Source of the DNA: a virus | Length of the DNA stretch: 64,000 bases | Virus record (IMG/VR): IMGVR_UViG_3300005663_001084 | Location: 24,929 to 88,928 of that record | Direction: 5' to 3' (one strand) | In this document: one piece after another, positions 4,058 through 45,230 of the stretch | How positions within the stretch are numbered: position 1 is the first letter of the stretch | Layout of the letters: each line of letters begins with the position of its first letter | Made by a program: the position numbers and the translations under genes | Notes under the pieces: model-generated | Seen by the model: the letters and a program-made list of their open reading frames with translations, nothing else | What the model was told of the DNA's origin: nothing | The model's database searches: none

Positions 4058-4431
4058 CAGATCTTCACGTCCTTCCGCAACGAAATGTGGACACCGGGGT
4101 TGATCTCGTCCAGCTTCAACCTGAGCTTGATGACCTCGACCTGATGCGGCCTGAGATTACGATCCCGCGCGGCGTAGAACGCGGCGTCCTTCGGGCTGTC
4201 AGCAACATACGTACCTGCCCGCAGAACGTCGTAATCACTGCGCTTCGGACGACCGTGATACAGTTCGACGGTCCCATCGAGCAGGATCGGGATGCCGTGG
4301 CGCTCCAGGTACTCGCCTACGGTTTCCTTGCCGAGAACCGGGTGGTCGAGCCAGACGCGGTTCAGACCCCCCTCGTCGTCGGCATCAGCCTCGTAGAGGA
4401 TCTTCCGGATGGCTTGGCGGGTGGCGTCCAT
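4057..4431 (-). CDS. L-family protein 3; possible H-Y-E ADP-ribosyltransferase- or Tpt1-like fold
   Basis: N-terminus MDATRQAIRKILYEAD. Motifs LYHGRP, GTYVADS and VEV. Confidence 0.65.
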   Translation of the reverse strand: MDATRQAIRKILYEADADDEGGLNRVWLDHPVLGKETVGEYLERHGIPILLDGTVELYHGRPKRSDYDVLRAGTYVADSPKDAAFYAARDRNLRPHQVEVIKLRLKLDEINPGVHISLRKDVKI

Positions 4432-4907
4432 CAGCGGCCCTCGATCTTGTCCGCGACGTTCACCATCTGCGAGAGCATGTTCCGGTAGCCGCCGCCGTGT
4501 TCGATGTTGGGGACGTCCGCGCTGTGAACCGCATCGATCTCGGTCTCACCGCGCTGAAGCGCCTCAATCGCCCGGTGGTGACCGTCCAGTATGAACCAGG
4601 CAGCGCGCTTTTCGAGCTTGCTGACCAGGAGCGGACTCTTAGCAGCATGGTAGGATAACTCCCCTTTCTCGATTTCACTGAAGGTTTTATCAATCTTCGG
4701 TTCCCAGGCGTACAGGCTGCGCAGCCGGACGCGCCAGGGTTTTCCCTTGATCGCGGCCTCAGCCAACAGACGCTTCACAAGATCGGGTGGGTAGCCCCGG
4801 TCAGAGCAGCCAGGAGGGGGTGCGGAGATCGAGCCGTCGCCGACCTGTTGGAAGACGCCGCGACCCTCGTTGAGGATGGAGCGAATGGCTTTGCGGGTGG
4901 GGTCCAT
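4431..4907 (-). CDS. L-family protein 4 with ParB/DGQHR-like nuclease domain
   Basis: N-terminus MDPTRKAIRSILNEG. Motif WFILDGHHRAIEALQRG, which is the ParB/Srx-type DGxHR signature. Confidence 0.7.
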   Translation of the reverse strand: MDPTRKAIRSILNEGRGVFQQVGDGSISAPPPGCSDRGYPPDLVKRLLAEAAIKGKPWRVRLRSLYAWEPKIDKTFSEIEKGELSYHAAKSPLLVSKLEKRAAWFILDGHHRAIEALQRGETEIDAVHSADVPNIEHGGGYRNMLSQMVNVADKIEGR

Positions 4908-4976
4908 CAGTCGTTTAGCATCCGCCGGGATTGTCCTCGTGGAATGAACTCGTCAGGTCGGCGTAGTGCATCGCAG

Positions 4977-14437: not shown

Positions 14438-14773
14438 TTAGTTGCCCCTCGTACGCGGCTGCCGCGTCTCGGGGTCCATCTCGTACGTCATCACTTCGTT
14501 GCAGAAAGTAATCGTCCCGCCGCCAGACAGTTTGCCGTCCCACACCTTGCCCCACGTCTCGTCTTCCCGCGAGCCAGTGATTGTGACACGGAACCCTACG
14601 TGTTCGCCTTCAGCGAGAACCCATGATGCCCCCGTCCAGTCTACACCTTCCGCCGGTTCCGCAACCCGCTGTCCCAGCGGATAACACAGCACCGTCTTGT
14701 TGCTAGGCATGGGAGTCTCGTCTTCAGGAGCCTCAGTGAGGAGGTGTCGGAGAGCTTTGCGGGTCTGATCCAT
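14438..14773 (-). CDS. L-family protein 5 (111 aa)
   Basis: Internal start MDQTRKALRHLLTEAPE of ORF 14438..15253. Confidence 0.65.
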   Translation of the reverse strand: MDQTRKALRHLLTEAPEDETPMPSNKTVLCYPLGQRVAEPAEGVDWTGASWVLAEGEHVGFRVTITGSREDETWGKVWDGKLSGGGTITFCNEVMTYEMDPETRQPRTRGN

Positions 14774-14837: not shown

Positions 14838-15362
14838 TCAGGTCTGTAGGTCCAGGCGCAGGAAGATGGCTTCGTAATTCTCCCGGGACTCGCGATGCGT
14901 CTCCACAAAGCCAAAACGCTCGTACAAGTGGTGGGCCGCCCGCTCGTCGTCGAGATCAGACGTAAACAGCTTGAGGCACTCGTAGCCCTCATCCTTGGCC
15001 CGCTGAATCGTGAAGCGCAGCAAATCGGTCCCCAGGCCCTGCTTCCGGTGGTCGGGATGAACGCAGAACCAACCGACCCAGATCGCCTCGGGCGTAGGAA
15101 TCTCGTTGTAGAAGCCAGTAACCCCAGTGACCACACCGTTTTCAATAGCAACCCAGTAGCGAATGTCGGAGCACTCGTGGGCTTCCATGAAATCGGTGTG
15201 GGACCCAGGACGGGTGGCCTCCTCAAAGCAGCGCTTGATGGATTCCTGGTCATCGTCCTTGAACACCTGCTGCGTCAACAGCATGGCCTGATCGGCGAAC
15301 TCAGCGGTGAGCGGCAAGGGCTTCACAACAGTATTATTGGATCGGAAGGCCTGTTTACCCAA
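14838..15362 (-). CDS. GNAT family N-acetyltransferase
   Basis: Motif VHPDHRKQGLGTDLL (GNAT motif A) and C-terminal YERFGF. A GTG start near 15326, 6 nt after the promoter GATAAT-like -10, is equally likely. Confidence 0.7.
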   Translation of the reverse strand: MGKQAFRSNNTVVKPLPLTAEFADQAMLLTQQVFKDDDQESIKRCFEEATRPGSHTDFMEAHECSDIRYWVAIENGVVTGVTGFYNEIPTPEAIWVGWFCVHPDHRKQGLGTDLLRFTIQRAKDEGYECLKLFTSDLDDERAAHHLYERFGFVETHRESRENYEAIFLRLDLQT

Positions 15363-15375
15363 GGAAATCCGACTC
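15327..15375 (-). promoter_or_regulatory. class-1 leaderless promoter variant
   Basis: The reverse complement reads atttccTTGGGTAAAcAGgCCtTCCgATCCaATAATactgttGTG. Confidence 0.5.
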
Positions 15376-15867
15376 GGGAAACCTCTTCGCGCGTCGCATG
15401 AGAGCCTCAGGCGTCATCCGGGGGTGCATCAGGTCGGTGACATCGACCTTGATGGCCTCCCGCTGATCCCAGACGTCGAGGTAGACCGTGTCGCCCAGCG
15501 TCAGGCCGGGCAGCAGGACGCGCAGGCGATTCAGAACCTCGGAGTCGAGCGTGGGCACCGTAATCCCGTCGTCGTAGCCGCGAATCCAGCCGTGTTCTAG
15601 CGCTTCGGCCTCAACCCGTTGGCGGTCGTGGGGATCGTCGGAAACCGTGCTCACCTCGTCCAGCAACTCCTCGATGCCCGGGTCGCCAGGGTACATCTCA
15701 GGAAAGCGCCTCAAGGCCTCAGCGGCGTGCGTCGTCCAGCCACTCCCAGTCCAGCCACTCCCAATGTTGATGTACTCGCCGTCGGGCAGGAGCCACCAGC
15801 GGCCCAGCCATGTGGACTCGCGGGCCTCGGTGAGGATGGAACGGATGGCGTGACGGGTGGAATCCAT
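15355..15867 (-). CDS. L-family protein 6; WxLPDG-domain paralog of protein 7
   Basis: N-terminus MDSTRHAIRSILTEAR. Motifs WWLLPDGEYINIGSGW and HGWIRGYDDG. Confidence 0.7.
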   Translation of the reverse strand: MDSTRHAIRSILTEARESTWLGRWWLLPDGEYINIGSGWTGSGWTTHAAEALRRFPEMYPGDPGIEELLDEVSTVSDDPHDRQRVEAEALEHGWIRGYDDGITVPTLDSEVLNRLRVLLPGLTLGDTVYLDVWDQREAIKVDVTDLMHPRMTPEALMRRAKRFPESDFLG

Positions 15868-16391
15868 TAGGCCTGCCGCGTGACTTGGGCAGGATGCTTT
15901 GCCAGCAGAACCGTCTCCACATCGGCGTACATGTACCCACTGCCATATTCGAGCAGGATTTTGCCCTTCGTGGCACCCCGGTCGAGCAGGAACGTCTGTA
16001 TACGCCTCAGCGACTCAGCATCGAACTCCAGCATGTCGAAGCCGCCGGTATCGGTTACACGAATCCAGCCATCCCGGATCGCCACCTGCTCAGGGTTGTT
16101 CATGTAGCGCGCGACGAAGTCAGGCTTCTTGGCGTACTCCCGAGCAATATCGGCGTGGACGTCGTACCAGGGGCCGTCGAAGGTCTCGTCCATGATGTCC
16201 TGCTCAGAGGCCGACAGGAACCCCCAGTCGATCTCAGCAGCGACGGCCAGAGCAGCCGCCTCGTGATTCCAGCCACTGTCTTCAACAGTCACAACCTCGC
16301 CATCAGGCAGAATCCAGTAATCAGCACGGAGCACGTCGGCAGCATCGGACTCAGTGAGCAGCTTTCGGATGGCGTGACGGGTCTGATCCAT
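15867..16391 (-). CDS. L-family protein 7; WxLPDG-domain paralog of protein 6
   Basis: N-terminus MDQTRHAIRKLLTESD. Motifs YWILPDGEVVTVEDSGW and DGWIRVTDTGG. Confidence 0.7.
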   Translation of the reverse strand: MDQTRHAIRKLLTESDAADVLRADYWILPDGEVVTVEDSGWNHEAAALAVAAEIDWGFLSASEQDIMDETFDGPWYDVHADIAREYAKKPDFVARYMNNPEQVAIRDGWIRVTDTGGFDMLEFDAESLRRIQTFLLDRGATKGKILLEYGSGYMYADVETVLLAKHPAQVTRQA

Positions 16392-22292: not shown

Positions 22293-22709
22293 CTACCGGC
22301 CAGTAACTACGTAGCGGCTCTTGAGTTCGTCCCCGTCAACACTGGGATGGCTGTAGTAGACGCCTCCCTCGGAGGTGTACAGATCCACGTCGAGGGTACT
22401 GGTGAACTGGTCTACCGTAGGATCTAGGATGTGACTGCCGACGATCACCCATGTGTGGTCCCACTCCTCAAGCTCCTCGAATCCGGGCCGGTCTCCTGTG
22501 ACTGTGATGAACTGGCCGCCTTGGATCTTTGCCTGGATTCCTTTGGCGCGGAGAAGTTTGACGAGTCCCTCGGCGGTCTCGCTGCAATCCCCGAACTGGG
22601 CAACGTCGCACACGAACTGCTTACGGGCCTGCTTGGCAAGATCAATGGTGGCGTCCGTGATCGACTCAGTGAGCATCCTGCGTATGACTGTTCTGGTGGA
22701 GTCCATCAC
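22293..22709 (-). CDS. L-family protein 8
   Basis: N-terminus MMDSTRTVIRRMLTESI. Confidence 0.65.
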   Translation of the reverse strand: MMDSTRTVIRRMLTESITDATIDLAKQARKQFVCDVAQFGDCSETAEGLVKLLRAKGIQAKIQGGQFITVTGDRPGFEELEEWDHTWVIVGSHILDPTVDQFTSTLDVDLYTSEGGVYYSHPSVDGDELKSRYVVTGR

Positions 22710-27833: not shown

Positions 27834-28037
27834 TCACTCCTCCTTCGCATCTTCAGTCCGATCAAAATACCCCTTCCCATCCTTGATTGTGTACCAATGT
27901 AATTTGCACTTCCCCGGACCACTTGTATCTTCCGGATACGGAAGTCCGATCCTGCTAGGCATTAGTCCACCGTAAAGCTCGTGAACAATCCCATCGAGCG
28001 GCCCGCCGACGAAAAGAATCTGCCGGGGGGAACTCAT
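27834..28037 (-). CDS. hypothetical protein
   Basis: ORF. Confidence 0.35.
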   Translation of the reverse strand: MSSPRQILFVGGPLDGIVHELYGGLMPSRIGLPYPEDTSGPGKCKLHWYTIKDGKGYFDRTEDAKEE

Positions 28038-28333
28038 CCGGATACCCCGCCGTCTTCGGCCTCTCTAGCCTCTCTAGCCTCTCTAGCCTCTCTGGCCCGT
28101 ATGGCTGCGAGGGCTCTGTCGCGGTCTACGTCGTTGGCGTGGACATGCCAATGCTGCGACTTACGCGCTGCGGCCAACTCCTGCCGCAGCCCTTCGGCGT
28201 ACTCATCCAGCGCGGCGGTGATGACTCTCTCAGTACAGCCACTATGGAGACCTCCAAAACGTCGGCAACAACTCTCCAAGAGTGTCATTACAGTCTCGTC
28301 CACGATCTTGTCCCGCAGTTCGTTGGTCATCAC
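28034..28333 (-). CDS. NELRDK-family protein (member A) with AREAREAREARE repeat
   Basis: Blocks MMTNELRDKIV and AALDEYAEGLRQELAAAR. The C-terminal (ARE)x4 is encoded by a 9-bp tandem repeat. Confidence 0.5.
   Translation of the reverse strand: MMTNELRDKIVDETVMTLLESCCRRFGGLHSGCTERVITAALDEYAEGLRQELAAARKSQHWHVHANDVDRDRALAAIRAREAREAREAREAEDGGVSG
28063..28098. repeat. 9-bp tandem repeat (CCTCTCTAG) x4 inside a CDS
   Basis: gcctctctagcctctctagcctctctagcctctctggcc. Confidence 0.8.
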
Positions 28334-28605
28334 TCCTCCCCTTCGTCTTCAGCCTGCGATTCGCGCCAGCGTTTGAGCAGGGCCTCGCGGGCTTTCTCGT
28401 CCATCCGCATCATCGAAAGCGGGTAGTACCGCGCGCCGTCGTCATCCGTGATCCTCACGTGAGGCTCGGCGAATCGTTTGATCCCCTCGCGCACTCCAAC
28501 TCTGTAACCCACCCCGATGCCAATCAGGAAAGCGACAAACGCGCAAACGATCACCATACAAAACCACGACCAATCCCATAATGAGTCCGGCTTTGCCATC
28601 TTCAC
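28330..28605 (-). CDS. membrane protein
   Basis: Transmembrane segment WFCMVIVCAFVAFLIGIGVGY. Confidence 0.4.
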   Translation of the reverse strand: MKMAKPDSLWDWSWFCMVIVCAFVAFLIGIGVGYRVGVREGIKRFAEPHVRITDDDGARYYPLSMMRMDEKAREALLKRWRESQAEDEGEE

Positions 28606-29216
28606 TCCTCCCCGCCGCCTTCAGCTAGCTCGGCCTCGATGCCTTCCAGGATTTTTGTAGCGGCCTCACGCTCGGCATCGCTGACAGGTCCAGTACCGAG
28701 TACGATAAGAATCTCTCCATTATCCCCGGTTATGCCGATCTGTTGACCACTGGCGGAATCTCGAAGAAACCCCAGCGCGTCCTTTTGGTACTGTTCTTTG
28801 GTTAGGACCTTCATTTTTCCTGTGTCGTCTTCGTCCCGCAACTTCTCCTCGTCGTCTTTGGCTTGTATGGTAGCGAGAGCTTTCTTAGCGCAGTGAGCCC
28901 ACTGCGCTATGTCTAGGTACCAAGTCAAAGCCTTACGCGCGACGGCCAACTTGATTCGGTAGCCTTCGTTTTGAACCCGATAATTCTCTGCCAACATTTT
29001 AACAGACCGCAAACAAGCAGATTGATCTTCTAGCTCGTGCCGCAACCCCTCGGCGTATTCGTTCAGCGCGGCGGCGATGATGGGACTCACCTTTTCATAT
29101 GCTTTGTTCCGCAACGCCGCGTATTCTTTACAATCCATGTCGCAGCGGTCGCCGAAAACGCCGGACACAGCCGCTGTTATCTTCCGTGCGATATTTTCCT
29201 GTCGTTCGTCGCTCAT
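28602..29216 (-). CDS. NELRDK-family protein (member B)
   Basis: Block AALNEYAEGLRHELEDQ. Confidence 0.5.
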   Translation of the reverse strand: MSDERQENIARKITAAVSGVFGDRCDMDCKEYAALRNKAYEKVSPIIAAALNEYAEGLRHELEDQSACLRSVKMLAENYRVQNEGYRIKLAVARKALTWYLDIAQWAHCAKKALATIQAKDDEEKLRDEDDTGKMKVLTKEQYQKDALGFLRDSASGQQIGITGDNGEILIVLGTGPVSDAEREAATKILEGIEAELAEGGGEE

Positions 29217-29244
29217 CGTTCTTCCTTTCCGCCGTCTTCGACGG

Positions 29245-29349
29245 CTACCACCATCCCGTGATGACCCCGGCGATGAGAATCATATACCACACGACTATCA
29301 AGATCCCAATAATGAGCCACACCTCCGGTGGCGGGGTGTCCGGGTTCAT
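29245..29349 (-). CDS. possible small membrane peptide (34 aa)
   Basis: MNPDTPPPEVWLIIGILIVVWYMILIAGVITGWW, ATGA-coupled to 29346..29654. Not in the ORF track. Confidence 0.3.
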   Translation of the reverse strand: MNPDTPPPEVWLIIGILIVVWYMILIAGVITGWW

Positions 29350-29654
29350 GCCTTCTCGCCTTTGTCGGCCTGCATGGCTTTGAGCGCTTCACGGGCGGTG
29401 TCGGCCTGCCCCTGCGCCCAGGGTGATGCACCGCCACTATAGCGTCTGATTTCCTTCAGTGCGGTCATCGCCACATCCAAATTATCCCGCAGCCCCTTGG
29501 CGTACTCGTCCAGCGCGTCGGCGATGATGGGAACTGCCACGTCCCAGCGCACCGAGATATGGTTTGCGCCATAAAAAGTGCAATCTTCTTCGAGAGTCTC
29601 CGACAATGCCCGCGCGATCTTGTCCCGCAGTTCGTTGGAGTCAGGCATCTTCAT
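29346..29654 (-). CDS. NELRDK-family protein (member C)
   Basis: Blocks MKMPDSNELRDKIA and ADALDEYAKGLRDNL. Confidence 0.5.
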   Translation of the reverse strand: MKMPDSNELRDKIARALSETLEEDCTFYGANHISVRWDVAVPIIADALDEYAKGLRDNLDVAMTALKEIRRYSGGASPWAQGQADTAREALKAMQADKGEKA

Positions 29655-30096
29655 CCTCCCCGCCGTCCTTGTAAGCCTCTTGAATGAGCTTCAATCCTTT
29701 GCGTATCTGGTCTGGGTTGTCGCTCTCGGAGATCTTGTGCAGCACGACTGAACGAATCTTGGCCAGGAATTCGACTTTATCAATGATTAGAGCCTCTTCG
29801 GGCTGCATGGCTGCGAGAGTTTCTCGGGTAATCTCGCGACACCGAATAGTCTCTTCGGACTTACCGGTAATCCATGTAGTACATATTTCTTGGATCTTAC
29901 CCAATGCCTCCCGACTTACGGCCAACTTCTCTCGCAGCCCCTCGGCATACTCGTCCAGTGCGGCCGCGACGTAGCTAGGTAACTTGTCCAGGCCTTGGAT
30001 CATGCGTGGCTCGTGGACAAGCCATGCGTCGGCCCATTTATGTGACCACTCGTCCGCGACCTTGTCCCGCAGTTCGTTTTTGTCAGGCATCTCCAT
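29641..30096 (-). CDS. NELRDK-family protein (member D)
   Basis: Internal start MEMPDKNELRDKVA. Block AALDEYAEGLREKL. Confidence 0.5.
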   Translation of the reverse strand: MEMPDKNELRDKVADEWSHKWADAWLVHEPRMIQGLDKLPSYVAAALDEYAEGLREKLAVSREALGKIQEICTTWITGKSEETIRCREITRETLAAMQPEEALIIDKVEFLAKIRSVVLHKISESDNPDQIRKGLKLIQEAYKDGGEDEDA

Positions 30097-30400
30097 CTCC
30101 CACTTTCTCTTTGATCGCGTCCAGGGCATCTTGCGCGGCCAGCACGTGACATAAAAAACCGTGTCGAGGCTCGGTAACATCTTCATCGGTAATCACGTGC
30201 GGGCAGCTACAGCCTCTGGCGATGATGAACTTAAAAGCATTTGCAGCCACGTACAGGGCTTCGACCTGCTTTTGGCCCCGAGAGTCTTTCAGCCTCCTCA
30301 CCATCACCCCGCGATGATGAAGGCAATACCTCTTACTGTCGAGCCTTGGGTCAGTGTAGATACCAATAGTGCCACAGTCCAGAAATTCACATTTAGCCAT
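30083..30400 (-). CDS. Cys/His-rich protein
   Basis: MAKCEFLDCG...CLHH...CSCPH. Confidence 0.45.
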   Translation of the reverse strand: MAKCEFLDCGTIGIYTDPRLDSKRYCLHHRGVMVRRLKDSRGQKQVEALYVAANAFKFIIARGCSCPHVITDEDVTEPRHGFLCHVLAAQDALDAIKEKVGDGDA

Positions 30401-34856: not shown

Positions 34857-35786
34857 ATGAAAGAAGTCAGCCCCCCGGCGGCAGATGTCGGCGTCCTAGT
34901 CGGCAGGTTCCAAGTCCACAAACTCCACGAAGCACACCTGGAACTGATCAGGCACGTGGTCAAGCACCACGACCGCGTGATGATCTTCCTGGGCATGTCG
35001 CCGTGCCGCGTCACGAGGAACAACCCCCTCGACTTCGACGCCCGCAAAGCGATGATCCAGGACGCCTTCCCGGACGTAAGTGTCTACTACGTCAGGGACT
35101 GCCGACCCGATGACCTGTGGTCTAAGCGCCTCGACAACATGATCTATGAGCACATCAAGCCGGGCGCGAAGGTCCTGCTGTACGGTGGGCGCGACGCGTT
35201 CATCAAGCACTACGAAGGCAAGATCCCCACGCGCGAGTTGGAGCAGGAGGTCTTCATCTCGGGCACCGCCGTGCGCAACACCATCGCCAACACCGTGCCC
35301 AAGACGACCGACTTCCGCGCCGGGGTCATCTGGGCCTCCCAGAATCAGTACCCGCGTGCCATCCCCACCGTCGACGTGGCCGTCTGGGACGAGACCGGCG
35401 AGAAGCTCCTACTGGCCCGCAAGCCCGACGAGGATCTCTACCGCTTCATCGGCGGCTTTGCCACTGGCCCAACGTACGAGTCCGACGCGCGGCGCGAGGT
35501 CGACGAGGAAGCGCACATCGCCATCACCGATCCAGTCTACGTGGGCTCGCATCAGGTCGACGACTGGCGCTACCGCAGCGAGGCCGACAAGATCGTCACG
35601 CTCCTATTCGAGGCCAAGCGGCTCAGCGGCAACCCACGTCCCGACGATGACATCGCTGAACTCAAGTGGTTTGATTTCGCAACACTCCGCGACGAAATGG
35701 TCGTCCCGGAGCACCGTCCACTCCTCAAGATGCTTCAATGCAAGAGGGAGACACACCATGAAGACGAACATCGTACTGGCGACTGA
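34857..35786 (+). CDS. nadM: bifunctional NMN adenylyltransferase/Nudix hydrolase (NadM-Nudix type)
   Basis: N-terminal cytidylyltransferase-fold block VLVGRFQVHKLHEAHLELI. Nudix box GGFATGPTYESDARREVDEEAHI. The 3' end overlaps the nadV start. Confidence 0.8.
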   Translation: MKEVSPPAADVGVLVGRFQVHKLHEAHLELIRHVVKHHDRVMIFLGMSPCRVTRNNPLDFDARKAMIQDAFPDVSVYYVRDCRPDDLWSKRLDNMIYEHIKPGAKVLLYGGRDAFIKHYEGKIPTRELEQEVFISGTAVRNTIANTVPKTTDFRAGVIWASQNQYPRAIPTVDVAVWDETGEKLLLARKPDEDLYRFIGGFATGPTYESDARREVDEEAHIAITDPVYVGSHQVDDWRYRSEADKIVTLLFEAKRLSGNPRPDDDIAELKWFDFATLRDEMVVPEHRPLLKMLQCKRETHHEDEHRTGD

Positions 35787-37140
35787 CAGCTACAAGCTCA
35801 CCCACTGGAATCAGTACCCACGCGGCACGGAGAAGGTCTACTCCTACTTCGAGGCGAGGCCCGGCGCGAAGTACCGCGACACCGTGTTCTTCGGTCTCCA
35901 GTACATCATCGCCGAGTACCTCGCAGGCCACGTCGTCACGACCCAGAAGATCGACGAGGCCGAGGCGTTGGCAGCCCAGCACTTCGGCAATCCGAACATC
36001 TTCAACCGCGCCCGCTGGGACCACATCGTCGACCAGCACGACGGCCGCCTGCCTGTCCGCATCAAGGCGGTGCCCGAGGGCACGCCGGTCCCTGTCAACA
36101 ACGTGATGATGACCATCGAGAACACGGACCCGGCCTGCTACTGGCTGACCAACCACCTGGAGACGATCCTCACGCACGTGTGGTACCCGTCCACCGTGGC
36201 CACGCAGAGCCGGGAGGCCAAGCGGATCTGCAAGAGGTACCTCGAAGAGACTGCCGAGTCCGCTGGCGGCCTGGACTTCATGCTGCACGACTTCGGCTAC
36301 CGTGGCGTGTCGTCGGTGGAGTCGGCTGGCCTCGGCGGCGCTGGTCACCTCGTCAACTTCCACGGCACTGACACCATCGCGGCGATGGAACTGCTGCGTC
36401 AGTACTACGATGCCGACGTACCCGCGTTCAGCGTACCGGCCACCGAACACAGCGTGATGACCGCGCACGGTGCAGACGGTGAGAACTGGGTGCTGTCGCA
36501 ACTGCTCGATGCCTACCCTACCGGCATCCTGTCCATCGTGATCGACTCGTACGACTACCGGAAGTTCATCAAGATGGCAGGCACGACGTTCAAGGATCGC
36601 ATCCTTGCCCGCGACGGCAAGGTCGTCTTCCGTCCCGACAGCGGAGATCCGTGCGAGGTGACACTGGAGGTCCTGGAACTGCTGGGCGAGTACTTCGGGT
36701 CAGCCGACGGTAAGCCCGGCTACAAGATCCTGCACCCCCAGGTCGGCGTGATCTGGGGCGATGGCATCGATCTCGAAGACATGGAGCGCATCCTGGCCGA
36801 CATCACCTACGCGGGTTGGAGCGCCGAGAACATGGTGTTCGGCATGGGCGGCGGCCTGCTCCAGAAAGTCAACCGCGACATCCAGCGCTTCGCGTTCAAG
36901 AGCAGCTACCAGGAGCGCGGCGGCGAAGGCCACGACATCTTCAAGGAGCCCATCGACAAGACCAAGACCAGCAAGAAGGGCCGACTGAAGCTGGTGCGCC
37001 TCGAAGGCGCGCACGGCTCCACGCTGACCACCGTCGGCATCGATGATCCACGCGAGGACCTGCTGGAGACGGTCTTCGAGGGCGGTCAGGTCCTGAAACG
37101 TTACAGCCTGGACGAGATCCGCGCGAGAGCAGCACTGTAA
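35758..37140 (+). CDS. nadV: nicotinamide phosphoribosyltransferase (NAMPT/NadV)
   Basis: MKTNIVLATDSYKLTHWNQYP...FGYRGVSS...HGTDT. It is co-linear with the NAMPT family throughout. The track ORF 35146..37140 is over-extended into the nadM alternate frame. Confidence 0.85.
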   Translation: MKTNIVLATDSYKLTHWNQYPRGTEKVYSYFEARPGAKYRDTVFFGLQYIIAEYLAGHVVTTQKIDEAEALAAQHFGNPNIFNRARWDHIVDQHDGRLPVRIKAVPEGTPVPVNNVMMTIENTDPACYWLTNHLETILTHVWYPSTVATQSREAKRICKRYLEETAESAGGLDFMLHDFGYRGVSSVESAGLGGAGHLVNFHGTDTIAAMELLRQYYDADVPAFSVPATEHSVMTAHGADGENWVLSQLLDAYPTGILSIVIDSYDYRKFIKMAGTTFKDRILARDGKVVFRPDSGDPCEVTLEVLELLGEYFGSADGKPGYKILHPQVGVIWGDGIDLEDMERILADITYAGWSAENMVFGMGGGLLQKVNRDIQRFAFKSSYQERGGEGHDIFKEPIDKTKTSKKGRLKLVRLEGAHGSTLTTVGIDDPREDLLETVFEGGQVLKRYSLDEIRARAAL

Positions 37141-37900: not shown

Positions 37901-38518
37901 GTGGAATACTACGAGTCACATTGCCCTGACTGTAACGCGACCTACCGTTGGGTTGGCTACAAGACTGGCATCGGCAAGACGCCCGAGCAGCTTGCTGCTA
38001 TGAATCGCCTGCACACTACCTGCGAGAGATGCGGCAGCACGAACCTGAAGACTGGGCTCGACCACGGCAGCCCGGAAGCGCAGGCGTACGACTCGGCGTT
38101 GAAAGGCACGATCAGCAGAATGCTACAGCCCACCCAGGAGGTGCGGACAGTCAAGACGACCGAGACCAAGCTCAGTGACGATGTGTGCCTGACTTGCCTT
38201 TTCTCCCACATGGAGCAGGTGTCTGTTGAGGATGGGAAGCTGAAAGTCCTTGGTCGGCTCGGCTATCCACCCGTTCTCAAGGGCTCTGTGGAGGCTGACT
38301 TTAAGATCGAGGTGGAACCTGAGACGGGCCATTTACGGGCACTCGTGGCTGGCCCGATCCGAACGGATTCTCATCCCATCAAGTACCGTGTGGACGTGGC
38401 TGAATTGGGGATGAGAGTGCACTGGATTGGAGATGCAAAAAGACGATGGCTAATGAGACGGACTGGGAAGAAACGTTGGAGGAACTTTGATGGCGGTGAC
38501 CCCCCTTCGAGAACATAG
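37901..38518 (+). CDS. zinc-ribbon protein
   Basis: GTG start after GGAGAGG. CPDCNATY...CERCGS. Confidence 0.45.
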   Translation: MEYYESHCPDCNATYRWVGYKTGIGKTPEQLAAMNRLHTTCERCGSTNLKTGLDHGSPEAQAYDSALKGTISRMLQPTQEVRTVKTTETKLSDDVCLTCLFSHMEQVSVEDGKLKVLGRLGYPPVLKGSVEADFKIEVEPETGHLRALVAGPIRTDSHPIKYRVDVAELGMRVHWIGDAKRRWLMRRTGKKRWRNFDGGDPPSRT

Positions 38519-38566
38519 GCCCCCTCGGCGTCAATGACCACGATGTGAAGTACGGAGACAACCAAG

Positions 38567-38785
38567 ATGACACTCAACGGTGAAGCGCGAGGGATCGCAG
38601 ATCTGCATCGCTGCCAGATCCAGGGCTACCTCAAGGCGGTCAAGGCTACGCTGTACTCGCTGGAGGAAGACTGCTCGCTGTTCAAGCATATGCCCAAGAC
38701 GCACATTCAGATCGGTAACCTGCTCTCCCAACTTGGACACGTCATGGCTGAGTGTGACGACGAGTTCTTGACGCAGGCACGCTGA
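38567..38785 (+). CDS. hypothetical protein
   Basis: ORF. Confidence 0.4.
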   Translation: MTLNGEARGIADLHRCQIQGYLKAVKATLYSLEEDCSLFKHMPKTHIQIGNLLSQLGHVMAECDDEFLTQAR

Positions 38786-39078
38786 TGGTCCCCCCGATCC
38801 ATCTCAACGACTCCGGCCCACGCGTCGCCCACTGGATCTTCTGTCCACGCTGTGGGTGGCAGACGCCCAAGCCCAACAGCGCCTGCGCCAATACCTGTTG
38901 CGGTAATGACCTCCACTACGCTGACCTGAGTCAGGCTGACCTCGACGAGATGGAGCGCGACGGCCTCACCGTCAAGGAGTTGGTCGACCGCTACTGGCAG
39001 AAGAGACGGGACGCTCAGCCGAAGCCTAAGAAGTTGCCGGACGAGGACCCGTACGACTGGAAGCCGCCGGAGGAGTAG
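38785..39078 (+). CDS. zinc-ribbon protein
   Basis: CPRCGWQTP...CANTCCG. Confidence 0.45.
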   Translation: MVPPIHLNDSGPRVAHWIFCPRCGWQTPKPNSACANTCCGNDLHYADLSQADLDEMERDGLTVKELVDRYWQKRRDAQPKPKKLPDEDPYDWKPPEE

Positions 39079-39079
39079 G

Positions 39080-39283
39080 ATGAGCGAGTTGATCACGTTC
39101 TCCGAGGAACTGATCCCCCAGGTCGTCAGGATCATGCGGATGGGGATCGTCGTGGCCATGAAGCGAGAGGACAAGAGAGGCAACCGCGAAGAGCGTGCCC
39201 TTGTGAAACGTGCTGCGGTGGCGCTGGAAGAGCAGTGCGTCTCGCTTATGGAGTACTGGGACCAGATGCAGAGCGAGGACTGA
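39080..39283 (+). CDS. hypothetical protein
   Basis: ORF. Confidence 0.4.
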   Translation: MSELITFSEELIPQVVRIMRMGIVVAMKREDKRGNREERALVKRAAVALEEQCVSLMEYWDQMQSED

Positions 39284-39285
39284 CT

Positions 39286-39636
39286 GTGGGCGAAGCAAGG
39301 TCGTTGGTTCCCGGCAAGCCCCTCATCTGCCAAGTGTGCGAGAAGAACGAGGCCAAAGGCGTCTGCTGCGTGCCCAGCGTCCCATACTCGGCAGCGTACT
39401 GTCAGGAGTGTCTGAACGCCAATGCACACCCCTGGTTTATCATCGTGGCCAACACAGCCTGCGTGGGCAGCTACGAGGACTGCGCCCCGTGGTGGAAAGA
39501 GATGGTCGAGGATACCTGCAAGCACCTGGGCAAGACTCTGGAAGAGTTCAAGGCCGAGGTTCTCAAGGACGTCGAGGATATGGAGCGGAGTCTGCTGGAG
39601 CAACTGGGAGATCCGGATAACGGACAGGAGGACTGA
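39286..39636 (+). CDS. Cys-rich protein
   Basis: GTG start. CQVCEKNEAKGVCCVP...CQECLN. Confidence 0.45.
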   Translation: MGEARSLVPGKPLICQVCEKNEAKGVCCVPSVPYSAAYCQECLNANAHPWFIIVANTACVGSYEDCAPWWKEMVEDTCKHLGKTLEEFKAEVLKDVEDMERSLLEQLGDPDNGQED

Positions 39637-39671
39637 CACGTGTACGACTACGCAGATTTTCGTCCGGCCGC

Positions 39672-40103
39672 CTAAGCACCGTACTTCTCTCGTACGGTCT
39701 CCGCATACTTGGGCACCACAGCCACCGGGATCTGCTCGAAGCCTGCGTCACGCAGCACAGCGAAGCGGTGGCGACCGTTGGTGAATCCGGGCAGGCCGGA
39801 CTCGTACGGCCCAATCTCGGGCATGATGATCGGCACGTCCGGGTTGTCGTGGAACCACTGCTGGAACTTCTCATACCTGTTGCTGATCGTAGGCCCGGTG
39901 CCGCCGGGGCCTACGTAGTCCGACGACTGCGCCCAGGCCGCGTCGAACTTGGCCACGTCCACTACGACCTCAACATCGGTACCGGCACGTTCAGGTTTGA
40001 CGAACAGACGACCGCCAACATTGAACTTCTTGTGAGGAGAACTCTCCGGAGGCCGCTCCGCTGCCTCGGTCAGGATGTGGCGTATGGCTCGGCGCGCGTC
40101 CAT
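39672..40103 (-). CDS. L-family protein 10 with ParB-like domain
   Basis: N-terminus MDARRAIRHILTEAA. Motif GFTNGRHRFAVLRDAGF. Confidence 0.65.
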   Translation of the reverse strand: MDARRAIRHILTEAAERPPESSPHKKFNVGGRLFVKPERAGTDVEVVVDVAKFDAAWAQSSDYVGPGGTGPTISNRYEKFQQWFHDNPDVPIIMPEIGPYESGLPGFTNGRHRFAVLRDAGFEQIPVAVVPKYAETVREKYGA

Positions 40104-41095
40104 CAGTCACCTGCCTGACGCTGACGTTCCCGGCGGGCGAACAGCTTAGTCTTCTCTTTCTCCGCACGGCGTACAGACACAATCTTCACACTGGCATACT
40201 TGGTGCGTAGTTGATTGATCGCTTCGTGCCACCTGTCCACGCTTTTCATCACGTCGGTCCAGGTGTCGAAGGCGTAGCCTCGCTTACCCAAAAACGGAAA
40301 CTCCCCTGTCTTCTTCCAGTGCGGGTAAGCATCCATGTACTTCTGCTCAGGGCTGATCACCCAGATATCACTGGACTCCGGAACTTTAAGGGCACCGGAC
40401 TTCACTGCCCACTCGACCTCGGCAGAGTACAACGCGCCCATGTTCTTCACGCCCTGATGAAACCACTTCTTCCATTCGGAAGCGTCTGGGAAGTCCGGCT
40501 GGTCGTAGTCCAGGTGGCTCGTAATTGCTCTTCGGTATGGGTCGTCTGAGTTGTGCTCTTCATCCAGGAACTGCAAGAACAGCCTGACCATATCGTCGAC
40601 GCTGTTTATCCTGCGCCCTGATCTCGCGATCCAGTGGCCAAAACTCTGTAGTGGCCCGCTGTACTGGAATCCGTAGTGTTGCTGCGCCGCCCCGAAATCT
40701 CTGAGCGCTTTCAGGACGTAACTTCCCATCTTCGTAAGGATCTGCTGTGGGTCTCCGGGACTGTTGAACAGACGGCCGAGGGCTTCCATGTTGTTGGCCA
40801 TGAGGTACGCTGGATCGTCGTACCGGATCATCGATACGTCGTTGAGGGCGGCCACGTCATCGCCGGGCATGCGGATCAGGAGTTCGCGGAGTTGTCCCCA
40901 GTCCATGATCATGTCCTGAATGGACGTGGCCCCGATACCCTTCAGCCCTTCGAGGCGACCGCTCATCAGATTAGCGAGCATCTCGTCATAGTTATAGGAC
41001 CCGAAGTCCAGCGCGAGGTAGAAGTATTGAGGCACGGCAGCGTCGGCTGCCTCGGTCAGCATGATGCGGCGCATGGCTGTGCGGGTGGGGTCCAT
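40103..41095 (-). CDS. L-family protein 11 (330 aa)
   Basis: N-terminus MDPTRTAMRRIMLTEAA. ATGA-coupled. Confidence 0.7.
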   Translation of the reverse strand: MDPTRTAMRRIMLTEAADAAVPQYFYLALDFGSYNYDEMLANLMSGRLEGLKGIGATSIQDMIMDWGQLRELLIRMPGDDVAALNDVSMIRYDDPAYLMANNMEALGRLFNSPGDPQQILTKMGSYVLKALRDFGAAQQHYGFQYSGPLQSFGHWIARSGRRINSVDDMVRLFLQFLDEEHNSDDPYRRAITSHLDYDQPDFPDASEWKKWFHQGVKNMGALYSAEVEWAVKSGALKVPESSDIWVISPEQKYMDAYPHWKKTGEFPFLGKRGYAFDTWTDVMKSVDRWHEAINQLRTKYASVKIVSVRRAEKEKTKLFARRERQRQAGD

Positions 41096-41718
41096 CAGTA
41101 GTAGCTCGGGTTGTAGGGCCGGTCCTCGCCGTACTGCTCGACCAGGGCACGCAGGCTGTCGTCCAAATGCTCGACGGCCTCGCGATACTTGCTGTTGTTG
41201 AGTGGGTAGTACAGGGTGCCTGTCCGCTCGTAGACTACGAGAATCCCCAACGTCGCCTCGGCCAGCTTGATGACCACGTCGTAGCAGGCGTCAGCCGCCG
41301 CGCGGTACAGCGGGTCCTCCACCTGGAGCGAGCCCTTCATCCTGGTGGCGCGCTTGCGTAGCCGTGTCGCGGCCTTCTGCATCGACTCCAACGACTCGTC
41401 CTTGTACTTGCTGACCTCCAGGTGCTCGCGGTACACGTCGCGTACATACTCTTCGTTGACGTGGCGGATGATGCCCATCTCTTCGTTGATGTGGCCGACC
41501 TCGATGCGGAGCGGGCTGGCCTTCGCATAGACCGCAGAGCCCAGCGAGCCCAGGATGCAGTGGACCGCCTCGGCGATGCGCTGGAGGCCAATCTCGTACT
41601 CGGTGTATGCCTGGAACCAGCCGCCTTCTGGCAGGCCGCCGTAGATCGTGCCAAGGGCGCAGTGGTCAGGCGCAGCTTCGGTCAGCATCTGGCGTATGAC
41701 GTGGCGTGTCTGGTCCAT
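41095..41718 (-). CDS. L-family protein 12
   Basis: Internal start MDQTRHVIRQMLTEAA of ORF 41095..41817. Confidence 0.65.
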   Translation of the reverse strand: MDQTRHVIRQMLTEAAPDHCALGTIYGGLPEGGWFQAYTEYEIGLQRIAEAVHCILGSLGSAVYAKASPLRIEVGHINEEMGIIRHVNEEYVRDVYREHLEVSKYKDESLESMQKAATRLRKRATRMKGSLQVEDPLYRAAADACYDVVIKLAEATLGILVVYERTGTLYYPLNNSKYREAVEHLDDSLRALVEQYGEDRPYNPSYY

Positions 41719-41722
41719 CGCG

Positions 41723-43399
41723 TTACTCGAACAGGTGGATCTCTTTCGGATTGAACTCAGCTTCAAGGACTCCCTGAAGTTTGCCGGTCCACTTGTACTG
41801 ACCGGGGTTGACAACACTGAGCCTGCCGGTGTCGCCCTCGAAGTGGCCTTTCCAACGGCTATCGACAGGAGGGTCCAAGTAGTCCCAGACTAGGTTGTGC
41901 GACCACGTGGGCAGTTCACCGTGCTCCTGAAAATACTCTTCCATGGCTTCGTCGTCTTCCAGGTCGAAGTCAACCAAGTCTTCCATGATCTGTTGATGGC
42001 GCTCGACTTGACCGTGATTCAGCACCCATATCTCATGTGTTCTTGGGTCTGTATAATCCATCTCGAACTCGTCGCCAGGATCGACATGGTACGCCTCGTT
42101 GCCATGCCCAAGCTCGAAGTAGAATATCGCTGTACTTTCGTCACCAACCGTGTGCGGGACGACAGGAGACTCGGTCAGCAGGATACCGCGCATGATCTGC
42201 CGCATCGAGTCCGCCACGTGCCGCTCGCGTCCGCGCTGTCCGTAGGCGGGCTCCCCGAACTCGTCCGGCCACGGCGTGTCTTTGTACGACTGAAACTGTG
42301 GATCATCCAAGAACGTGCCAAGGTGTTTCCACCGCAGACGCAGGAGTTCCTCAGGAAGAAGCTCGTGCGTTCGGCTTTGGTTAAGCGGCCACGGGTTGGT
42401 GGGCCTTTCCTCGTCTCCCGGCATGAGGTCGCGTACGCTGCCGGGCTTGACGACGAACGTCGGTCCCACGCGCTCGATGTACTGCCTCCAGAACTCGGGG
42501 TCCGGCTTGCCGTAGAGTACCGTGTAGCGCTGGTACATGTCCGCGCCGGTCCTGGGCATCTGTCTCCAGTGCCATGCGTTGTCGTTCTGGACCGCCCAGA
42601 GGATCTTGTTGGCTCCCCGAAAGCCCACGTCCTGGTCAAGCCGGATGTTGCTGGCCCCAAACATCGCGCCTTTTGTATGCTTGGCGATCTGACCGCGCAC
42701 GGCCCGGAGCAGCTTCTCGTGCGCCTCGCGGACGATTGGCGTCGTCTTGGCTGTCCCACTCCAAGGATCGGTTGCCTTCTCTTCAATCGCCGCGCGCATC
42801 CAAGCTCGGATCATTTCCTTGTATGGGCGGAAGAGTCTCAGGGCGAACTCGCCGGGCATGCGCCGTTCGAGCTTCTCGTTCAAGAACCCGATGAAGTCCT
42901 CGAAGCTCGGCATCATGGCCCCGTCTACCTTGTCGTACCACTCCTTGTCCCAGTGCGCTGCCCCGGTCGCCTTCCGGTAGCTCTCCCAGTCAAGACTGTC
43001 AAGCGCGATCAGGATGGCCTGGGCCGTGTCCGACGAGGGGATGTTCTGGCCCACTCGGCGCATGAAGAGCGTGAGAGGGATGCTGGCCGAAAGCTGGTCT
43101 TCGTCGAACAGCGCGGTCCGCGTCTCGACCTGGAGGCCGAACACGACCGGCGCGCCGCCGAACTTCTCGGCTGCCTTTCTGGCTTCGCTCTCTGCCGTCA
43201 TCGCGTTCTGTGTAGCATAGATGCCTCCGTACGAGGCGATGGTGCCGCGCTCGGGATCGTACTGGCGCTGCTCGGGAGGAATGTCGGCACGCAGGCCCTC
43301 CTTGAAGACCAGACGGGCGCGGCCTGAAGACGTTCCGTGATAGTAGATCTCGCGGGCTTCGGTGAGCATCCTACGTATGGCTTGTCGGGCTGCGTCCAT
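41723..43399 (-). CDS. L-family protein 13 (about 558 aa); possible H-Y-E ADP-ribosyltransferase-like N-terminal domain; internal second leader motif
   Basis: N-terminus MDAARQAIRRMLTEARE. Candidate ART motifs YYHGTSSGR and YGGIYAT. Internal copy SMRQIMRGILLTES. The C-terminal approximately 170 aa are homologous to protein 14 (FYFELGHGN...LPTWSH...KGHFEGDTGRLS...EIHLFE). Confidence 0.7.
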   Translation of the reverse strand: MDAARQAIRRMLTEAREIYYHGTSSGRARLVFKEGLRADIPPEQRQYDPERGTIASYGGIYATQNAMTAESEARKAAEKFGGAPVVFGLQVETRTALFDEDQLSASIPLTLFMRRVGQNIPSSDTAQAILIALDSLDWESYRKATGAAHWDKEWYDKVDGAMMPSFEDFIGFLNEKLERRMPGEFALRLFRPYKEMIRAWMRAAIEEKATDPWSGTAKTTPIVREAHEKLLRAVRGQIAKHTKGAMFGASNIRLDQDVGFRGANKILWAVQNDNAWHWRQMPRTGADMYQRYTVLYGKPDPEFWRQYIERVGPTFVVKPGSVRDLMPGDEERPTNPWPLNQSRTHELLPEELLRLRWKHLGTFLDDPQFQSYKDTPWPDEFGEPAYGQRGRERHVADSMRQIMRGILLTESPVVPHTVGDESTAIFYFELGHGNEAYHVDPGDEFEMDYTDPRTHEIWVLNHGQVERHQQIMEDLVDFDLEDDEAMEEYFQEHGELPTWSHNLVWDYLDPPVDSRWKGHFEGDTGRLSVVNPGQYKWTGKLQGVLEAEFNPKEIHLFE

Positions 43400-43403
43400 T
43401 GCG

Positions 43404-45230
43404 CTACTCAAAAACGTGAATTTCAGTCGGGCTGAACTCGGAGCGGAGCATTCCGATCAACTGGTTGGTGAGTTTGAAGCGTCCAGGGTTCATGGCGCTG
43501 AGCCTTCCGGTGTCACCCTCATAATGACCTTTCCAGTACTGGTCGGGGTTCGGCCAGAGCATACCATGCGACCACGTGGGCAAGCCTCGTCCCTTCTCTT
43601 CTTGTTGATCGACGTAAGCCTGCAACGCTTCGGGATCGCTTAGGTCAACACCCTCGTCCTCGATGTTAGGCATGTTAAGCTGATGGTAACGCTGGATTTC
43701 GCCGTGCATCAGAACCCAAATCTCATGGGTCAGCGGATCGGTGTACTCCATCCCGTCGTCATACGAGGTGTTCCCGTGTCCGAGGTCGAAGTAAAATACG
43801 GATGTACCTTCATCGTCGATCTTGTGGAGCGTGACATCGCTGGCGACGACAGATTCGGGGAGGCTCTCCTTGTCCATCACCACAAGAGCCGGAAGCGCCT
43901 CGACACCCAGGACGTGGAGAGCGTCGTACCGGTGGCTGCCCTCCAGGACGTACGGGCCTTCTTTGTCGACAACCACGATCAGCGGCACGATCCAACCACT
44001 TGCAGCGATCTGCTGCGCCAGTTCGCGGGCCGCCTCGTTGTCATCTCCAGAAGTCTCGAAAGCAGACAAGGGAACGGCGCGGATGCCGGACAGCACCTCG
44101 TAGTCCAGAAGACTGGCCGCGATGGAACTGGTATTTGGAACTTCGTCACCCACGCGGAGGCCGCTGACCTCGTCACCAGCCCGTGGGTAGAGTTCGTCCT
44201 CCTGGGCCTCGGCGAGTATTCGACGTATCACACGTCGGCTTTCGGTCAGCGCCTCGTCCTGCCCGGCGTAAAACCTGCGGATCGCACCCATGATGCGGCG
44301 CGAGTTTTCTCCGGGATCGAACATGTAGGACTTATTCCGTTCGGCCTTCCAGTAGTAGTCGTTACGCTCGTCGAATTCGCCCAGGCCGTCCTCCATATCG
44401 ACCGGCATGCCCTCGGCGCTGAAGTTATCGATCCAGCCCTCCAAGGTCCGGTACTGCGCCGAGGTGGGCTGGACCATCATGTCGAGGCCGCCGTCTTCAG
44501 GCATCAGACGGATCGCGCCCAGGCTCATAAACTCCTGCATGCCGCGCGTGCCGCCCCCGCCGTAACCGATGTTCCGATGGTCAAAGCCGCGCCCGTAGCC
44601 GCCGCCCCCGCCCGAGATCATGTCGCCGTCAGGCAGCAAGTAGAACGCATCGGTGAAGCTGCTCGTGATCCCGAACCGGCCCTTGGCTTTCTCGAACGGG
44701 TCGGCCTCGTCCTCCGCGTCCTCTACGCCGGGCCAGTCCTCCATGGACAGCGGCATCTCGTTGTCTAGCTTTCGGAGAACCTGGAGCGGGATCTCGCGGT
44801 ACCTGGACTCCTGGCCGTTCTGCACACTACGGAATACGGAGCGAGCGTACTCTCCGGCCGACCAGCCGAACTCGTCACTGATCACTCCAATGATCCGGGC
44901 GTGGAAGTCCAGCAGTATCTGGGGTTCGTTCTGGACGAGCGCAGCCATCTCTCCCGGATTCCAGTTGAGTGCGTCGTAGACCGCGCTCCAGATAGTCCGG
45001 TGCTCACCCTCGTCGAACGTAGCCAGCGTGTACTCGGGGAACAGTTCAGTGACAATCCTCTCGTAGCGCTGCCAGTCGTAGTCCCTGTCCTCCTCACGGT
45101 TTACCGCGTCCAGGAAGAACTCCCGCAGGTGATCGTACGTCATGTTCCAGACGTGCCGAGGCTGGGTGGGAGCCTCAACGCTGGCCTGCTCGGCCAACAC
45201 CTGCCGCATCACTAGGCGAGTGGCATCCAT
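43404..45230 (-). CDS. L-family protein 14 (about 608 aa) with internal leader copy, ParB-like domain and a C-terminal domain shared with protein 13
   Basis: N-terminus MDATRLVMRQVLAEQ. Internal copy ESRRVIRRILAEAQ. ParB-like motif YVLEGSHRYDALHVLG. C-terminal FYFDLGHGN...LPTWSH...EIHVFE. Confidence 0.7.
   Translation of the reverse strand: MDATRLVMRQVLAEQASVEAPTQPRHVWNMTYDHLREFFLDAVNREEDRDYDWQRYERIVTELFPEYTLATFDEGEHRTIWSAVYDALNWNPGEMAALVQNEPQILLDFHARIIGVISDEFGWSAGEYARSVFRSVQNGQESRYREIPLQVLRKLDNEMPLSMEDWPGVEDAEDEADPFEKAKGRFGITSSFTDAFYLLPDGDMISGGGGGYGRGFDHRNIGYGGGGTRGMQEFMSLGAIRLMPEDGGLDMMVQPTSAQYRTLEGWIDNFSAEGMPVDMEDGLGEFDERNDYYWKAERNKSYMFDPGENSRRIMGAIRRFYAGQDEALTESRRVIRRILAEAQEDELYPRAGDEVSGLRVGDEVPNTSSIAASLLDYEVLSGIRAVPLSAFETSGDDNEAARELAQQIAASGWIVPLIVVVDKEGPYVLEGSHRYDALHVLGVEALPALVVMDKESLPESVVASDVTLHKIDDEGTSVFYFDLGHGNTSYDDGMEYTDPLTHEIWVLMHGEIQRYHQLNMPNIEDEGVDLSDPEALQAYVDQQEEKGRGLPTWSHGMLWPNPDQYWKGHYEGDTGRLSAMNPGRFKLTNQLIGMLRSEFSPTEIHVFE

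Follow-up and report, generated by a model that had tools for sequence, protein, structure and literature searches.

Predicted ParB/sulfiredoxin domains in four members of a leader-peptide gene family of an uncultured virus

Leader genes and the four ParB-like proteins

The DNA stretch analysed here (the window, 64,000 nt with a G+C content of 59%) covers positions 24,929 to 88,928 of the IMG/VR virus record IMGVR_UViG_3300005663_001084. It carries a family of 16 genes, all on the minus strand, whose products each begin with MDxTRxAIRxxLxE. Only this leader, the first 14-15 amino acids (aa), is common to all 16 proteins; the remainder is diverse. The genes form tandem arrays (4907 to 2700; 16391 to 15355 plus 14773 to 14438; 23098 to 22293; 45688 to 39672; 63663 to 63190), within which stop/start overlaps of 1 nt join most genes. 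An initial annotation of the sequence had quoted one ParB-like string from each of proteins 4, 9, 10 and 14. Its numbering fits the 16-gene leader set, and the four strings were found verbatim, each once, on the minus strand within leader genes. The four proteins are identical, respectively, to GenBank entries KKN96697, KKN96731, KKN96778 and KKN96782, which belong to a 224,854-bp contig from the marine-sediment metagenome LCGC14. Their genes and domains are as follows.

4431-4907, minus strand: protein 4 (158 aa; UniProt A0A0F9VA99), first gene of the array 4907 to 2700, with the leader at aa 1-14
4434-4751, minus strand: cargo domain of protein 4 (aa 53-158), of the 'DGHHR...IEHGGGY' family, with motif WFILDGHHRAIEALQRG at 4548-4598
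22706-23098, minus strand: protein 9 (130 aa, GTG start; A0A0F9XCK9), first gene of the array 23098 to 22293, with the leader at aa 1-14
22709-22996, minus strand: predicted ParB/sulfiredoxin-fold domain of protein 9 (aa ~35-130), with motif KLLDGHHRLIARMMSG at 22820-22867
39672-40103, minus strand: protein 10 (143 aa; A0A0F9XWL7), last gene of the array 45688 to 39672
39675-39986, minus strand: cargo domain of protein 10 (aa ~40-143), PFIN/Osa-like, with motif FTNGRHRFAVLRDAGF at 39738-39785
43404-45230, minus strand: protein 14 (608 aa; A0A0F9VAL5), consisting of leader, N-terminal module, internal leader, ParB module and C-terminal domain
43845-44060, minus strand: ParB_N-like module of protein 14 (aa ~391-462), with motif YVLEGSHRYDALHVLG at 43905-43952

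The pattern [DEN]G.[HR]R occurs five times in the 3,610 residues of the leader family (shuffle mean 0.42; none of 2000 shuffles reached 5) and twice in the ~15,600 residues outside it (provisional gene set), and its enrichment in the leader family exceeds chance. The consensus that had been proposed for the four strings (hydrophobic-x-D/E-G-x-H/R-R-x-x-A) captures a real motif but is too strict as written: protein 10 has N in place of D/E, and protein 4 lacks the Ala at position +3 past the Arg. The G, H and R are invariant both in a 16-sequence alignment and in a 60-sequence alignment of the protein 4 family, and the register given by hhalign agrees. This fits the Gly-x-x-Arg that the superfamily conserves where the nucleotide-binding helix begins, behind a hydrophobic strand.

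Two further strings of this type were noticed. One is a second, unexplained copy in the N-terminal module of protein 14 at aa 74 (ATFDEGEHRTIWSAV, region 45009-45011), and the other is VWFNEGEHRLG in a plus-strand gene outside the family (53903-54382). No ParB/Srx match was obtained for the aa 74 region or for the 53903-54382 gene, and both strings are probably due to chance.

Assignment of the four domains to the ParB/sulfiredoxin superfamily

The assignment of all four segments to the superfamily of ParB and sulfiredoxin (ParB/Srx) made by the initial annotation was borne out by profile matches, by the predicted fold of protein 9 and by UniProt names; profile searches did return significant ParB/Srx hits, and the matches of the four domains converge on one superfamily and one register. 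In protein 14, aa 397-451 match Pfam ParB_N (E 2.2e-4; 21.7 bits against a cut-off of 26.3), and the protein also matches five ParB-like PHROG families (E 1.6e-5 to 1e-2). All six of its PDB matches are to ParB, Spo0J or sulfiredoxin (ParB 7o0n, E 0.005; Spo0J, E 0.017; sulfiredoxin, E 0.1), and the PDB alignment places YVLEGSHRYDA opposite YRIIAGARRWRA. When the 16 sequences were scanned with NCBIfam models, one unnamed member each was matched by Noc and by parB_part (E 0.0055), presumably protein 14. Judged from these profiles, protein 14 almost certainly belongs to the superfamily. An L-P-E-S string lies past its ParB module and could be an extra cleavage site.

Searches with the single sequences of proteins 4, 9 and 10 (Pfam, PHROGs, PDB) gave nothing significant, and small-profile PDB searches with proteins 4 and 9 gave chance matches only (a sugar-binding protein, prefoldin and METTL3). 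For protein 9, a structure model supports the ParB/Srx fold, with a predicted core that could be superposed on sulfiredoxin and on the ParB N-domain. Its structural neighbours (scores in brackets) are SbnI (7.5), free serine kinase (7.5), PadC (7.3), pNOB8 ParB-N (7.0), KorB (6.3) and Atu1540 (5.6), SerK, SbnI and Srx being the best, and its membership of the superfamily is scarcely less certain than that of protein 14. The protein 10 family profile (7 sequences) matched SbnI (E 0.009) exactly over the motif. In addition, five of the seven protein 10 homologues matched Pfam PFIN (PF22162; E 2e-4 to 3.5e-3; 18.2-22.2 bits against a cut-off of 27), one homologue spanning model positions 1-118 of 118; no PFIN match was obtained from protein 10 itself or from P0010. 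On these sequence matches, protein 10 very probably belongs to ParB/Srx as well.

Protein 4 is the weakest case, its profile matches making membership likely. Its single-sequence matches were faint (DUF1015, E 0.045; SerK, E 0.063). An exhaustive HMMER search extended its family to 86 representative clusters (45 with E below 1e-10) that share a domain of ~100 aa (LYxWxPKxxETxxDxxEGRLSxS...VSRLDxPRGxFFxxDGHHRxxEA...PxIERTGGAY) and no Pfam match above cut-off. Among 52 full-length relatives, ParBc_2 matched 11 (best E 1.3e-4) and ParB_N one; fusion to ART-PolyVal, an ADP-ribosyltransferase (ART) module, is frequent (10 of the 52), and fusions to GNAT, C39 peptidase and GDSL lipase domains also occur. 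With the 60-sequence profile, 8 of the 12 PDB matches were to SbnI, 1vk1 or SerK (E 0.026-0.7); in the SbnI alignments shown, the strand-DGxHR segment lies at the centre. A tblastn search of phages with a typical domain of this family gave no match. One homologue (P0006, on a 746-bp ENA contig) has an N-terminus like isocitrate/isopropylmalate dehydrogenase instead of a leader and is probably an assembly chimera; this N-terminus accounts for the dehydrogenase matches in the scans of family members.

It could be argued that in protein 4 the DGHHR string is a chance likeness and that the domain does not have the ParB/Srx fold. The lack of significant matches in single-sequence and small-profile searches would fit this, as would an AlphaFold model from a 6-sequence alignment (pLDDT, the predicted local distance difference test, of 41) that was unusable, and the best PDB match of the 60-sequence profile is to a beta-lactamase. 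However, independent weak matches (DUF1015, ParBc_2, SerK, SbnI, 1vk1 and ParB_N) are all to ParB/Srx members in the same register, and the leader-free 60-sequence profile finds protein 9, with its model-supported fold, at E 1.7e-4 among the 753 open reading frames (ORFs) of the window. UniProt also names protein 4 as ParB/Sulfiredoxin, and a chance likeness is improbable. The automatic UniProt names single out exactly proteins 4, 9, 10 and 14 as 'ParB/Sulfiredoxin domain-containing' or 'ParB-like N-terminal domain-containing', and none of six other leader members checked bears a ParB/Srx name. In this narrow sense, the finding mainly confirms existing automatic annotation.

Predicted functional relatives

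The ParB/Srx fold binds CTP, ATP or GTP depending on the family (PMC12704722; PMC5512222). The relatives nearest to proteins 4, 9 and 10 are SerK and SbnI, which are ATP-using kinases, the reductase Srx, and Osa, a ParB/Srx protein with ATPase and DNase activity (PMC5512222). The four domains had initially been described as DGQHR-like nucleases. No DGQHR or DndB match was found at E<=1 in the NCBIfam scan of the 16 sequences or in the Pfam scans, and the label of nuclease is not supported either, the nearest relatives of proteins 4 and 9 being the two kinases and the reductase. Four hidden Markov models (HMMs) of the window families gave no meaningful match to the ParB domain of P1 DdrB (--max, single reference sequence), and the window domains appear to belong to ParB/Srx branches other than the DdrB-like one.

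The D-G-x-H-R type of box is shared with SerK, SbnI and sulfiredoxin, which, apart from the beta-lactamase matched by the protein 4 profile, supply the best PDB sequence matches of the protein 4 and protein 10 profiles. Unlike SerK and SbnI, the window proteins comprise the ~100-aa core only, without the C-terminal kinase domain, and identity is 13-20%. In sulfiredoxin the box reads GCHR and its Cys is catalytic, whereas the window proteins have His at that position. The module of protein 14 aligns with box I-II of the ParB/Spo0J/Noc clamps but departs from the canonical clamps (TIGR00180): GSHRYDA stands for GERRxRA, no ENxxR box follows the fourth strand, no Pfam match to a helix-turn-helix (HTH) or C-terminal ParB domain was found, and the dimerisation domain and ParA partner are absent.

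Relationships among the four domains

The initial annotation had interpreted the set as repeated duplication of one effector, an interpretation that the comparisons among the domains did not sustain. Outside the GxHR box the four domains appear almost undetectable against each other: profile comparison gave 21-22 common columns (the DGHHR block) for proteins 4 and 9, E ~0.002-0.1 for proteins 10 and 14, and no detected similarity between proteins 4 and 10 or 9 and 10. They are predicted to represent at least three ParB/Srx branches, namely a ParB_N-like one (protein 14), a PFIN/Osa-like one (protein 10) and a DGHHR type (protein 4 and, distantly, protein 9), the last of which seems nearest to the ATP-using SerK/SbnI/Srx group. 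The protein 10 domain is 42-49% identical to leaderless proteins, far above any paralogue in the window. Two of these leaderless homologues (P0012 and P0013) have ArdC-MPTase, Fic, integrase, RES toxin and LuxI/R genes as neighbours and are therefore placed on plasmids or elements resembling integrative and conjugative elements (ICE). The likeness to the Osa/PFIN plasmid fertility-inhibition factors extends from the PFIN matches of the protein 10 homologues to the plasmid/ICE-like location of its leaderless relatives, whereas protein 10 itself is phage-borne and leader-tagged.

Had a single ParB-like or DGQHR-like nuclease effector been duplicated within the genome and then diversified, a G-x-H-R box in all four domains, with G, H and R invariant over the 16 aligned sequences, would be expected, as would the block shared by proteins 4 and 9, and true paralogues do occur among other leader members (1/2, 6/7 and 13/14). 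Against such a history, the domains are not detectably similar beyond the short box and match different families (ParB_N, PFIN and ParBc_2/SerK-like), the closest relatives of protein 10 are leaderless proteins of bacterial mobile elements, the protein 4 domain belongs to a family that numbers at least 86 clusters and is joined to many other partners, and neither a DGQHR/DndB match nor anything else points to nuclease activity. Duplication of one effector is accordingly improbable. The preferred history is that at least three ParB/Srx families were recruited separately to a common leader, because protein 10 is far closer to leaderless proteins than to its window paralogues and the protein 4 domain family is wide, with many fusion partners.

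The leader peptide

Residues D2, R5, R9, L12 and E14 of the leader are invariant, and their synonymous codons are many (five for R9), which indicates selection on the peptide rather than on an element at the RNA or DNA level. All 14 gap-free leaders have L12 and E14, and members 10 and 11 likewise finish with L-T-E, the leader of protein 10 being one residue short (13 aa). The residue after the Glu in the 14 gap-free copies is Ala in nine, Ser in two, Gln in two and Gly in one. In the structure model of protein 9 the leader is disordered. Copies of the leader also lie inside two proteins.

44202-44243, minus strand: internal leader of protein 14 (ESRRVIRRILAEAQ, aa 330-343; ESRRVIRRILAEA at aa 330-342), ~47 residues upstream of the ParB module (aa 391-462)
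42167-42211, minus strand: internal leader of protein 13 (DSMRQIMRGILLTES, aa 397-411), immediately before the C-terminal domain shared with protein 14

Proteins 13 and 14 are the only multi-module proteins in the window. Their C-terminal domains (41726-42178 and 43407-43850) are 50% identical over 158 aa and have no family match; the shared pattern of ~150 aa is FYFxLGHGN...THEIWVLxHG...LPTWSH...WKGHxEGDTGRLS...EIHxFE. Between the internal leader and this domain, a ParB module is present in protein 14 only. A comparable arrangement was found in a 498-aa relative (P0028), in which three leader copies at aa 1, 171 and 364 separate an ART-PolyVal match (E 4.6e-5), a protein-4-like domain and a GNAT match (E 0.032); its ART-PolyVal, ParBc_2 and GNAT matches are all weak and below cut-off. 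In addition, three leader genes stand in tandem on a related contig (L032, 60.6% GC), and the last of them encodes a protein 4 homologue with 67% identity.

Eight of the 16 leader copies fit one degenerate DNA pattern exactly (chance expectation 0). In IMG/VR this pattern had one spurious match, on a GC-rich contig with tail genes (L004); in JGI metagenomes it had 27 single matches that look unrelated. None of these matches was arrayed. The leader appears limited to this phage lineage, and a literature search returned no description of the leader family of this contig.

Putative role of the leader and its cargos

A short peptide as the sole conserved part of otherwise diverse proteins is known from phage T4, in which the internal proteins and Alt are injected and share only an N-terminal targeting propeptide of 10-20 aa (PMC3012670). 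The T4 prohead protease gp21 removes this targeting sequence after L/I-X-E, a motif first defined at a Glu-Ala bond (PMC9026906, PMC3012670). In the giant phage SPN3US, the paralogous ejection proteins gp53 and gp54 have an identical 15-aa N-terminus with x-X-E motifs (PMC5694885). The window leader is likened to targeting and cleavage of the T4 type because it is a short N-terminal peptide on unrelated proteins, has a terminal L-x-E with Ala usually next, and reappears within proteins where modules meet. As with T4 IPI, IPII, IPIII and Alt, the genes occur in clusters and differ in their cargo, whereas the window has 16 members against ~4 in T4 and includes polyprotein-like members with internal leaders. 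The window phage is, moreover, uncultured, with 59% GC and ~225 kb.

ParB/Srx is also a recognised module of polyvalent proteins, which are predicted to be packaged and delivered with DNA (Iyer et al. 2017, PMC5512222), and their ParB domains are thought to be DNases regulated by nucleoside triphosphates (NTPs) or NTP sensors (PMC5512222). ParB/Srx modules as parts of injected phage effectors are already a published concept. The protein 4 family is placed in this setting because it is fused to ART-PolyVal, GNAT and C39 peptidase domains, and the likeness lies in the deployment of ParB/Srx together with ART, GNAT and peptidase modules. In polyvalent proteins the modules form one giant polypeptide, whereas most window modules are separate small proteins with a leader of their own. 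The leader system, with its 16 tagged cargos, internally tagged polyproteins and three seemingly independent ParB/Srx recruitments, is the more interesting part of the present finding.

By analogy with these systems we infer packaging, cleavage, injection and biochemical activity, and hold with moderate confidence that the ParB/Srx domains are cargos of head-packaged, injected effectors behind a T4-like targeting leader; that the leader itself is a capsid-targeting sequence is favoured to a similar or slightly smaller degree. As a capsid-targeting propeptide, the leader would bring each cargo into the prohead, where the prohead protease would remove it after L-x-E (Glu14). Cuts at internal leader copies would split the multi-module proteins into modules, and ejection would deliver the mature proteins to the host along with the DNA. 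Once inside, the ParB/Srx modules might be enzymes that bind or hydrolyse NTPs (for nicking/DNase activity, NTP sensing or phosphotransfer) and serve early takeover or counter-defence, in the way proposed for the ParB domains of polyvalent proteins.

Several observations weigh against this explanation. Every family match of the four domains is below the curated gathering score, the protein 4 model was of no use, and protein 14 is unlikely to be a ParB-type CTP clamp because of its GSHRYDA and missing ENxxR; enzymatic activity is not readable from sequence. Apart from the terminal L/I-x-E-A, the leader shows no sequence resemblance to its T4 counterpart. Neither the window nor the flanks of 1.4-5.6 kb at either edge contain a prohead protease, capsid or other virion gene, and any such genes would lie outside the sequence covered. 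Searches of IMG/VR and of JGI metagenome contigs with the exact leader DNA pattern turned up no arrays, and comparative support for the leader therefore comes from few short contigs. Some of these points would equally suit a leader that is not a packaging signal, the ParB/Srx cargos being real and acting inside the cell without being packaged. The peptide could then dock a chaperone or partner, serve as a degron for timed proteolysis or be a localisation tag. The lack of virion and protease genes nearby and the dissimilarity to the T4 sequence favour such a role, and the leader genes lie among small accessory-type genes and not among late structural genes. It nevertheless seems rather unlikely, since the combination of a short peptide on unrelated proteins, L-x-E plus Ala and reuse at module boundaries is the T4-type signature, and relatives of the protein 4 domain are fused to modules of polyvalent proteins, for which delivery with DNA is predicted (PMC5512222).

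A more far-reaching extension of the packaging explanation is possible but tentative. It would describe a non-T4 giant phage with its own 14-residue packaging and cleavage tag, loading at least 16 unrelated effectors and polyproteins, with three unrelated ParB/Srx families recruited independently. The DGHHR family would then be an injected NTP-dependent enzyme, perhaps kinase-like or NTP-sensing and used in counter-defence, rather than a nuclease. If the leader is a portable packaging and cleavage tag, the family would provide a catalogue of the proteins that a giant phage injects first, and the tag could find use in delivering proteins, an application that the T4 targeting sequence has already had. 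The occurrence of three ParB/Srx branches with one tag would speak for small NTP-binding ParB/Srx modules as a favoured tool of early infection, and would mark out the DGHHR family, with its frequent fusions to ADP-ribosyltransferases, for biochemistry.

Other leader members and neighbouring genes

The remaining leader genes are listed below.

2700-3092, 3092-4057 and 4057-4431, minus strand: leader members 1-3, in tandem after protein 4 with 1-nt overlaps (TGATG)
14438-14773, 15355-15867 and 15867-16391, minus strand: leader members 5-7
22293-22706, minus strand: leader member 8, directly after protein 9, with a weak Transglut_core match (E 0.019, aa 37-86)
40103-41095 and 41095-41718, minus strand: leader members 11 and 12
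41723-43399, minus strand: leader member 13 (protein 13, 558 aa), with leader and internal leader and without a ParB domain
45230-45688, minus strand: leader member 15, first gene of the largest array
63190-63663, minus strand: leader member 16, with a HiPIP-like cargo (Pfam HIPIP, E 2.4e-5, 25 bits against a cut-off of 22; the UniProt name agrees)

Pfam scans revealed no recognisable domain in most leader cargos. Over 115 aa, member 1 (130 aa) and the C-terminal part of member 2 (321 aa) have 40% identity; member 2 matches PHROG 3170, of unknown function (E 1.9e-22). Members 6 and 7 are 27% identical. A 'W/Y-x-LLPDG-x-hydrophobic' segment is common to both and to the N-terminal module of protein 14 (aa ~190-215; BLAST E 0.014 to 7e-4); by eye, a segment of this type is also present in a non-leader gene (61819-62364, minus strand), and another cargo family is possible. 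From its Pfam match, the cargo of member 8 is possibly papain-like or of the transglutaminase fold. Proteins 13 and 15 have EIYYHGTS and VEYYHVTP, respectively, right after the leader, resembling the start of an ADP-ribosyltransferase domain, and are 26% identical over 115 aa; no ART domain was matched in either by Pfam, and an iterative search seeded with the P0028 N-terminus recruited nothing. The high-potential iron-sulfur protein (HiPIP) of member 16 is an unusual thing for a putatively injected protein to carry, and a 27-aa stretch of this member is 44% identical to the region just past the internal leader of protein 13.

The window further encodes a nicotinamide phosphoribosyltransferase (NAMPT), Nudix, HD-hydrolase and EndoVII/HNH proteins, together with many small ORFs without matches. 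The closest relatives of the NAMPT are jumbo-phage proteins, and a blastn search of region 38500-46000 against GenBank phages gave zero DNA matches. The source genome is most likely that of a large uncultured phage of ~225 kb. PADLOC returned no relevant match. The NAMPT gene (35146-37140, plus strand) matches PHROG 448 (E 3.5e-160) and its product has an extra N-terminal region of ~200 aa; it is listed as a gene of nicotinamide adenine dinucleotide (NAD) salvage together with 55076-56566 (plus strand), whose product has a Nudix-like region, and both are of an auxiliary type typical for large phages. A second small paralogous family, leaderless, occupies 28034-30186 on the minus strand, where four neighbouring ORFs have 'NELRDKI...' in common close to the start and '...ALDEYAEGLR...' later.

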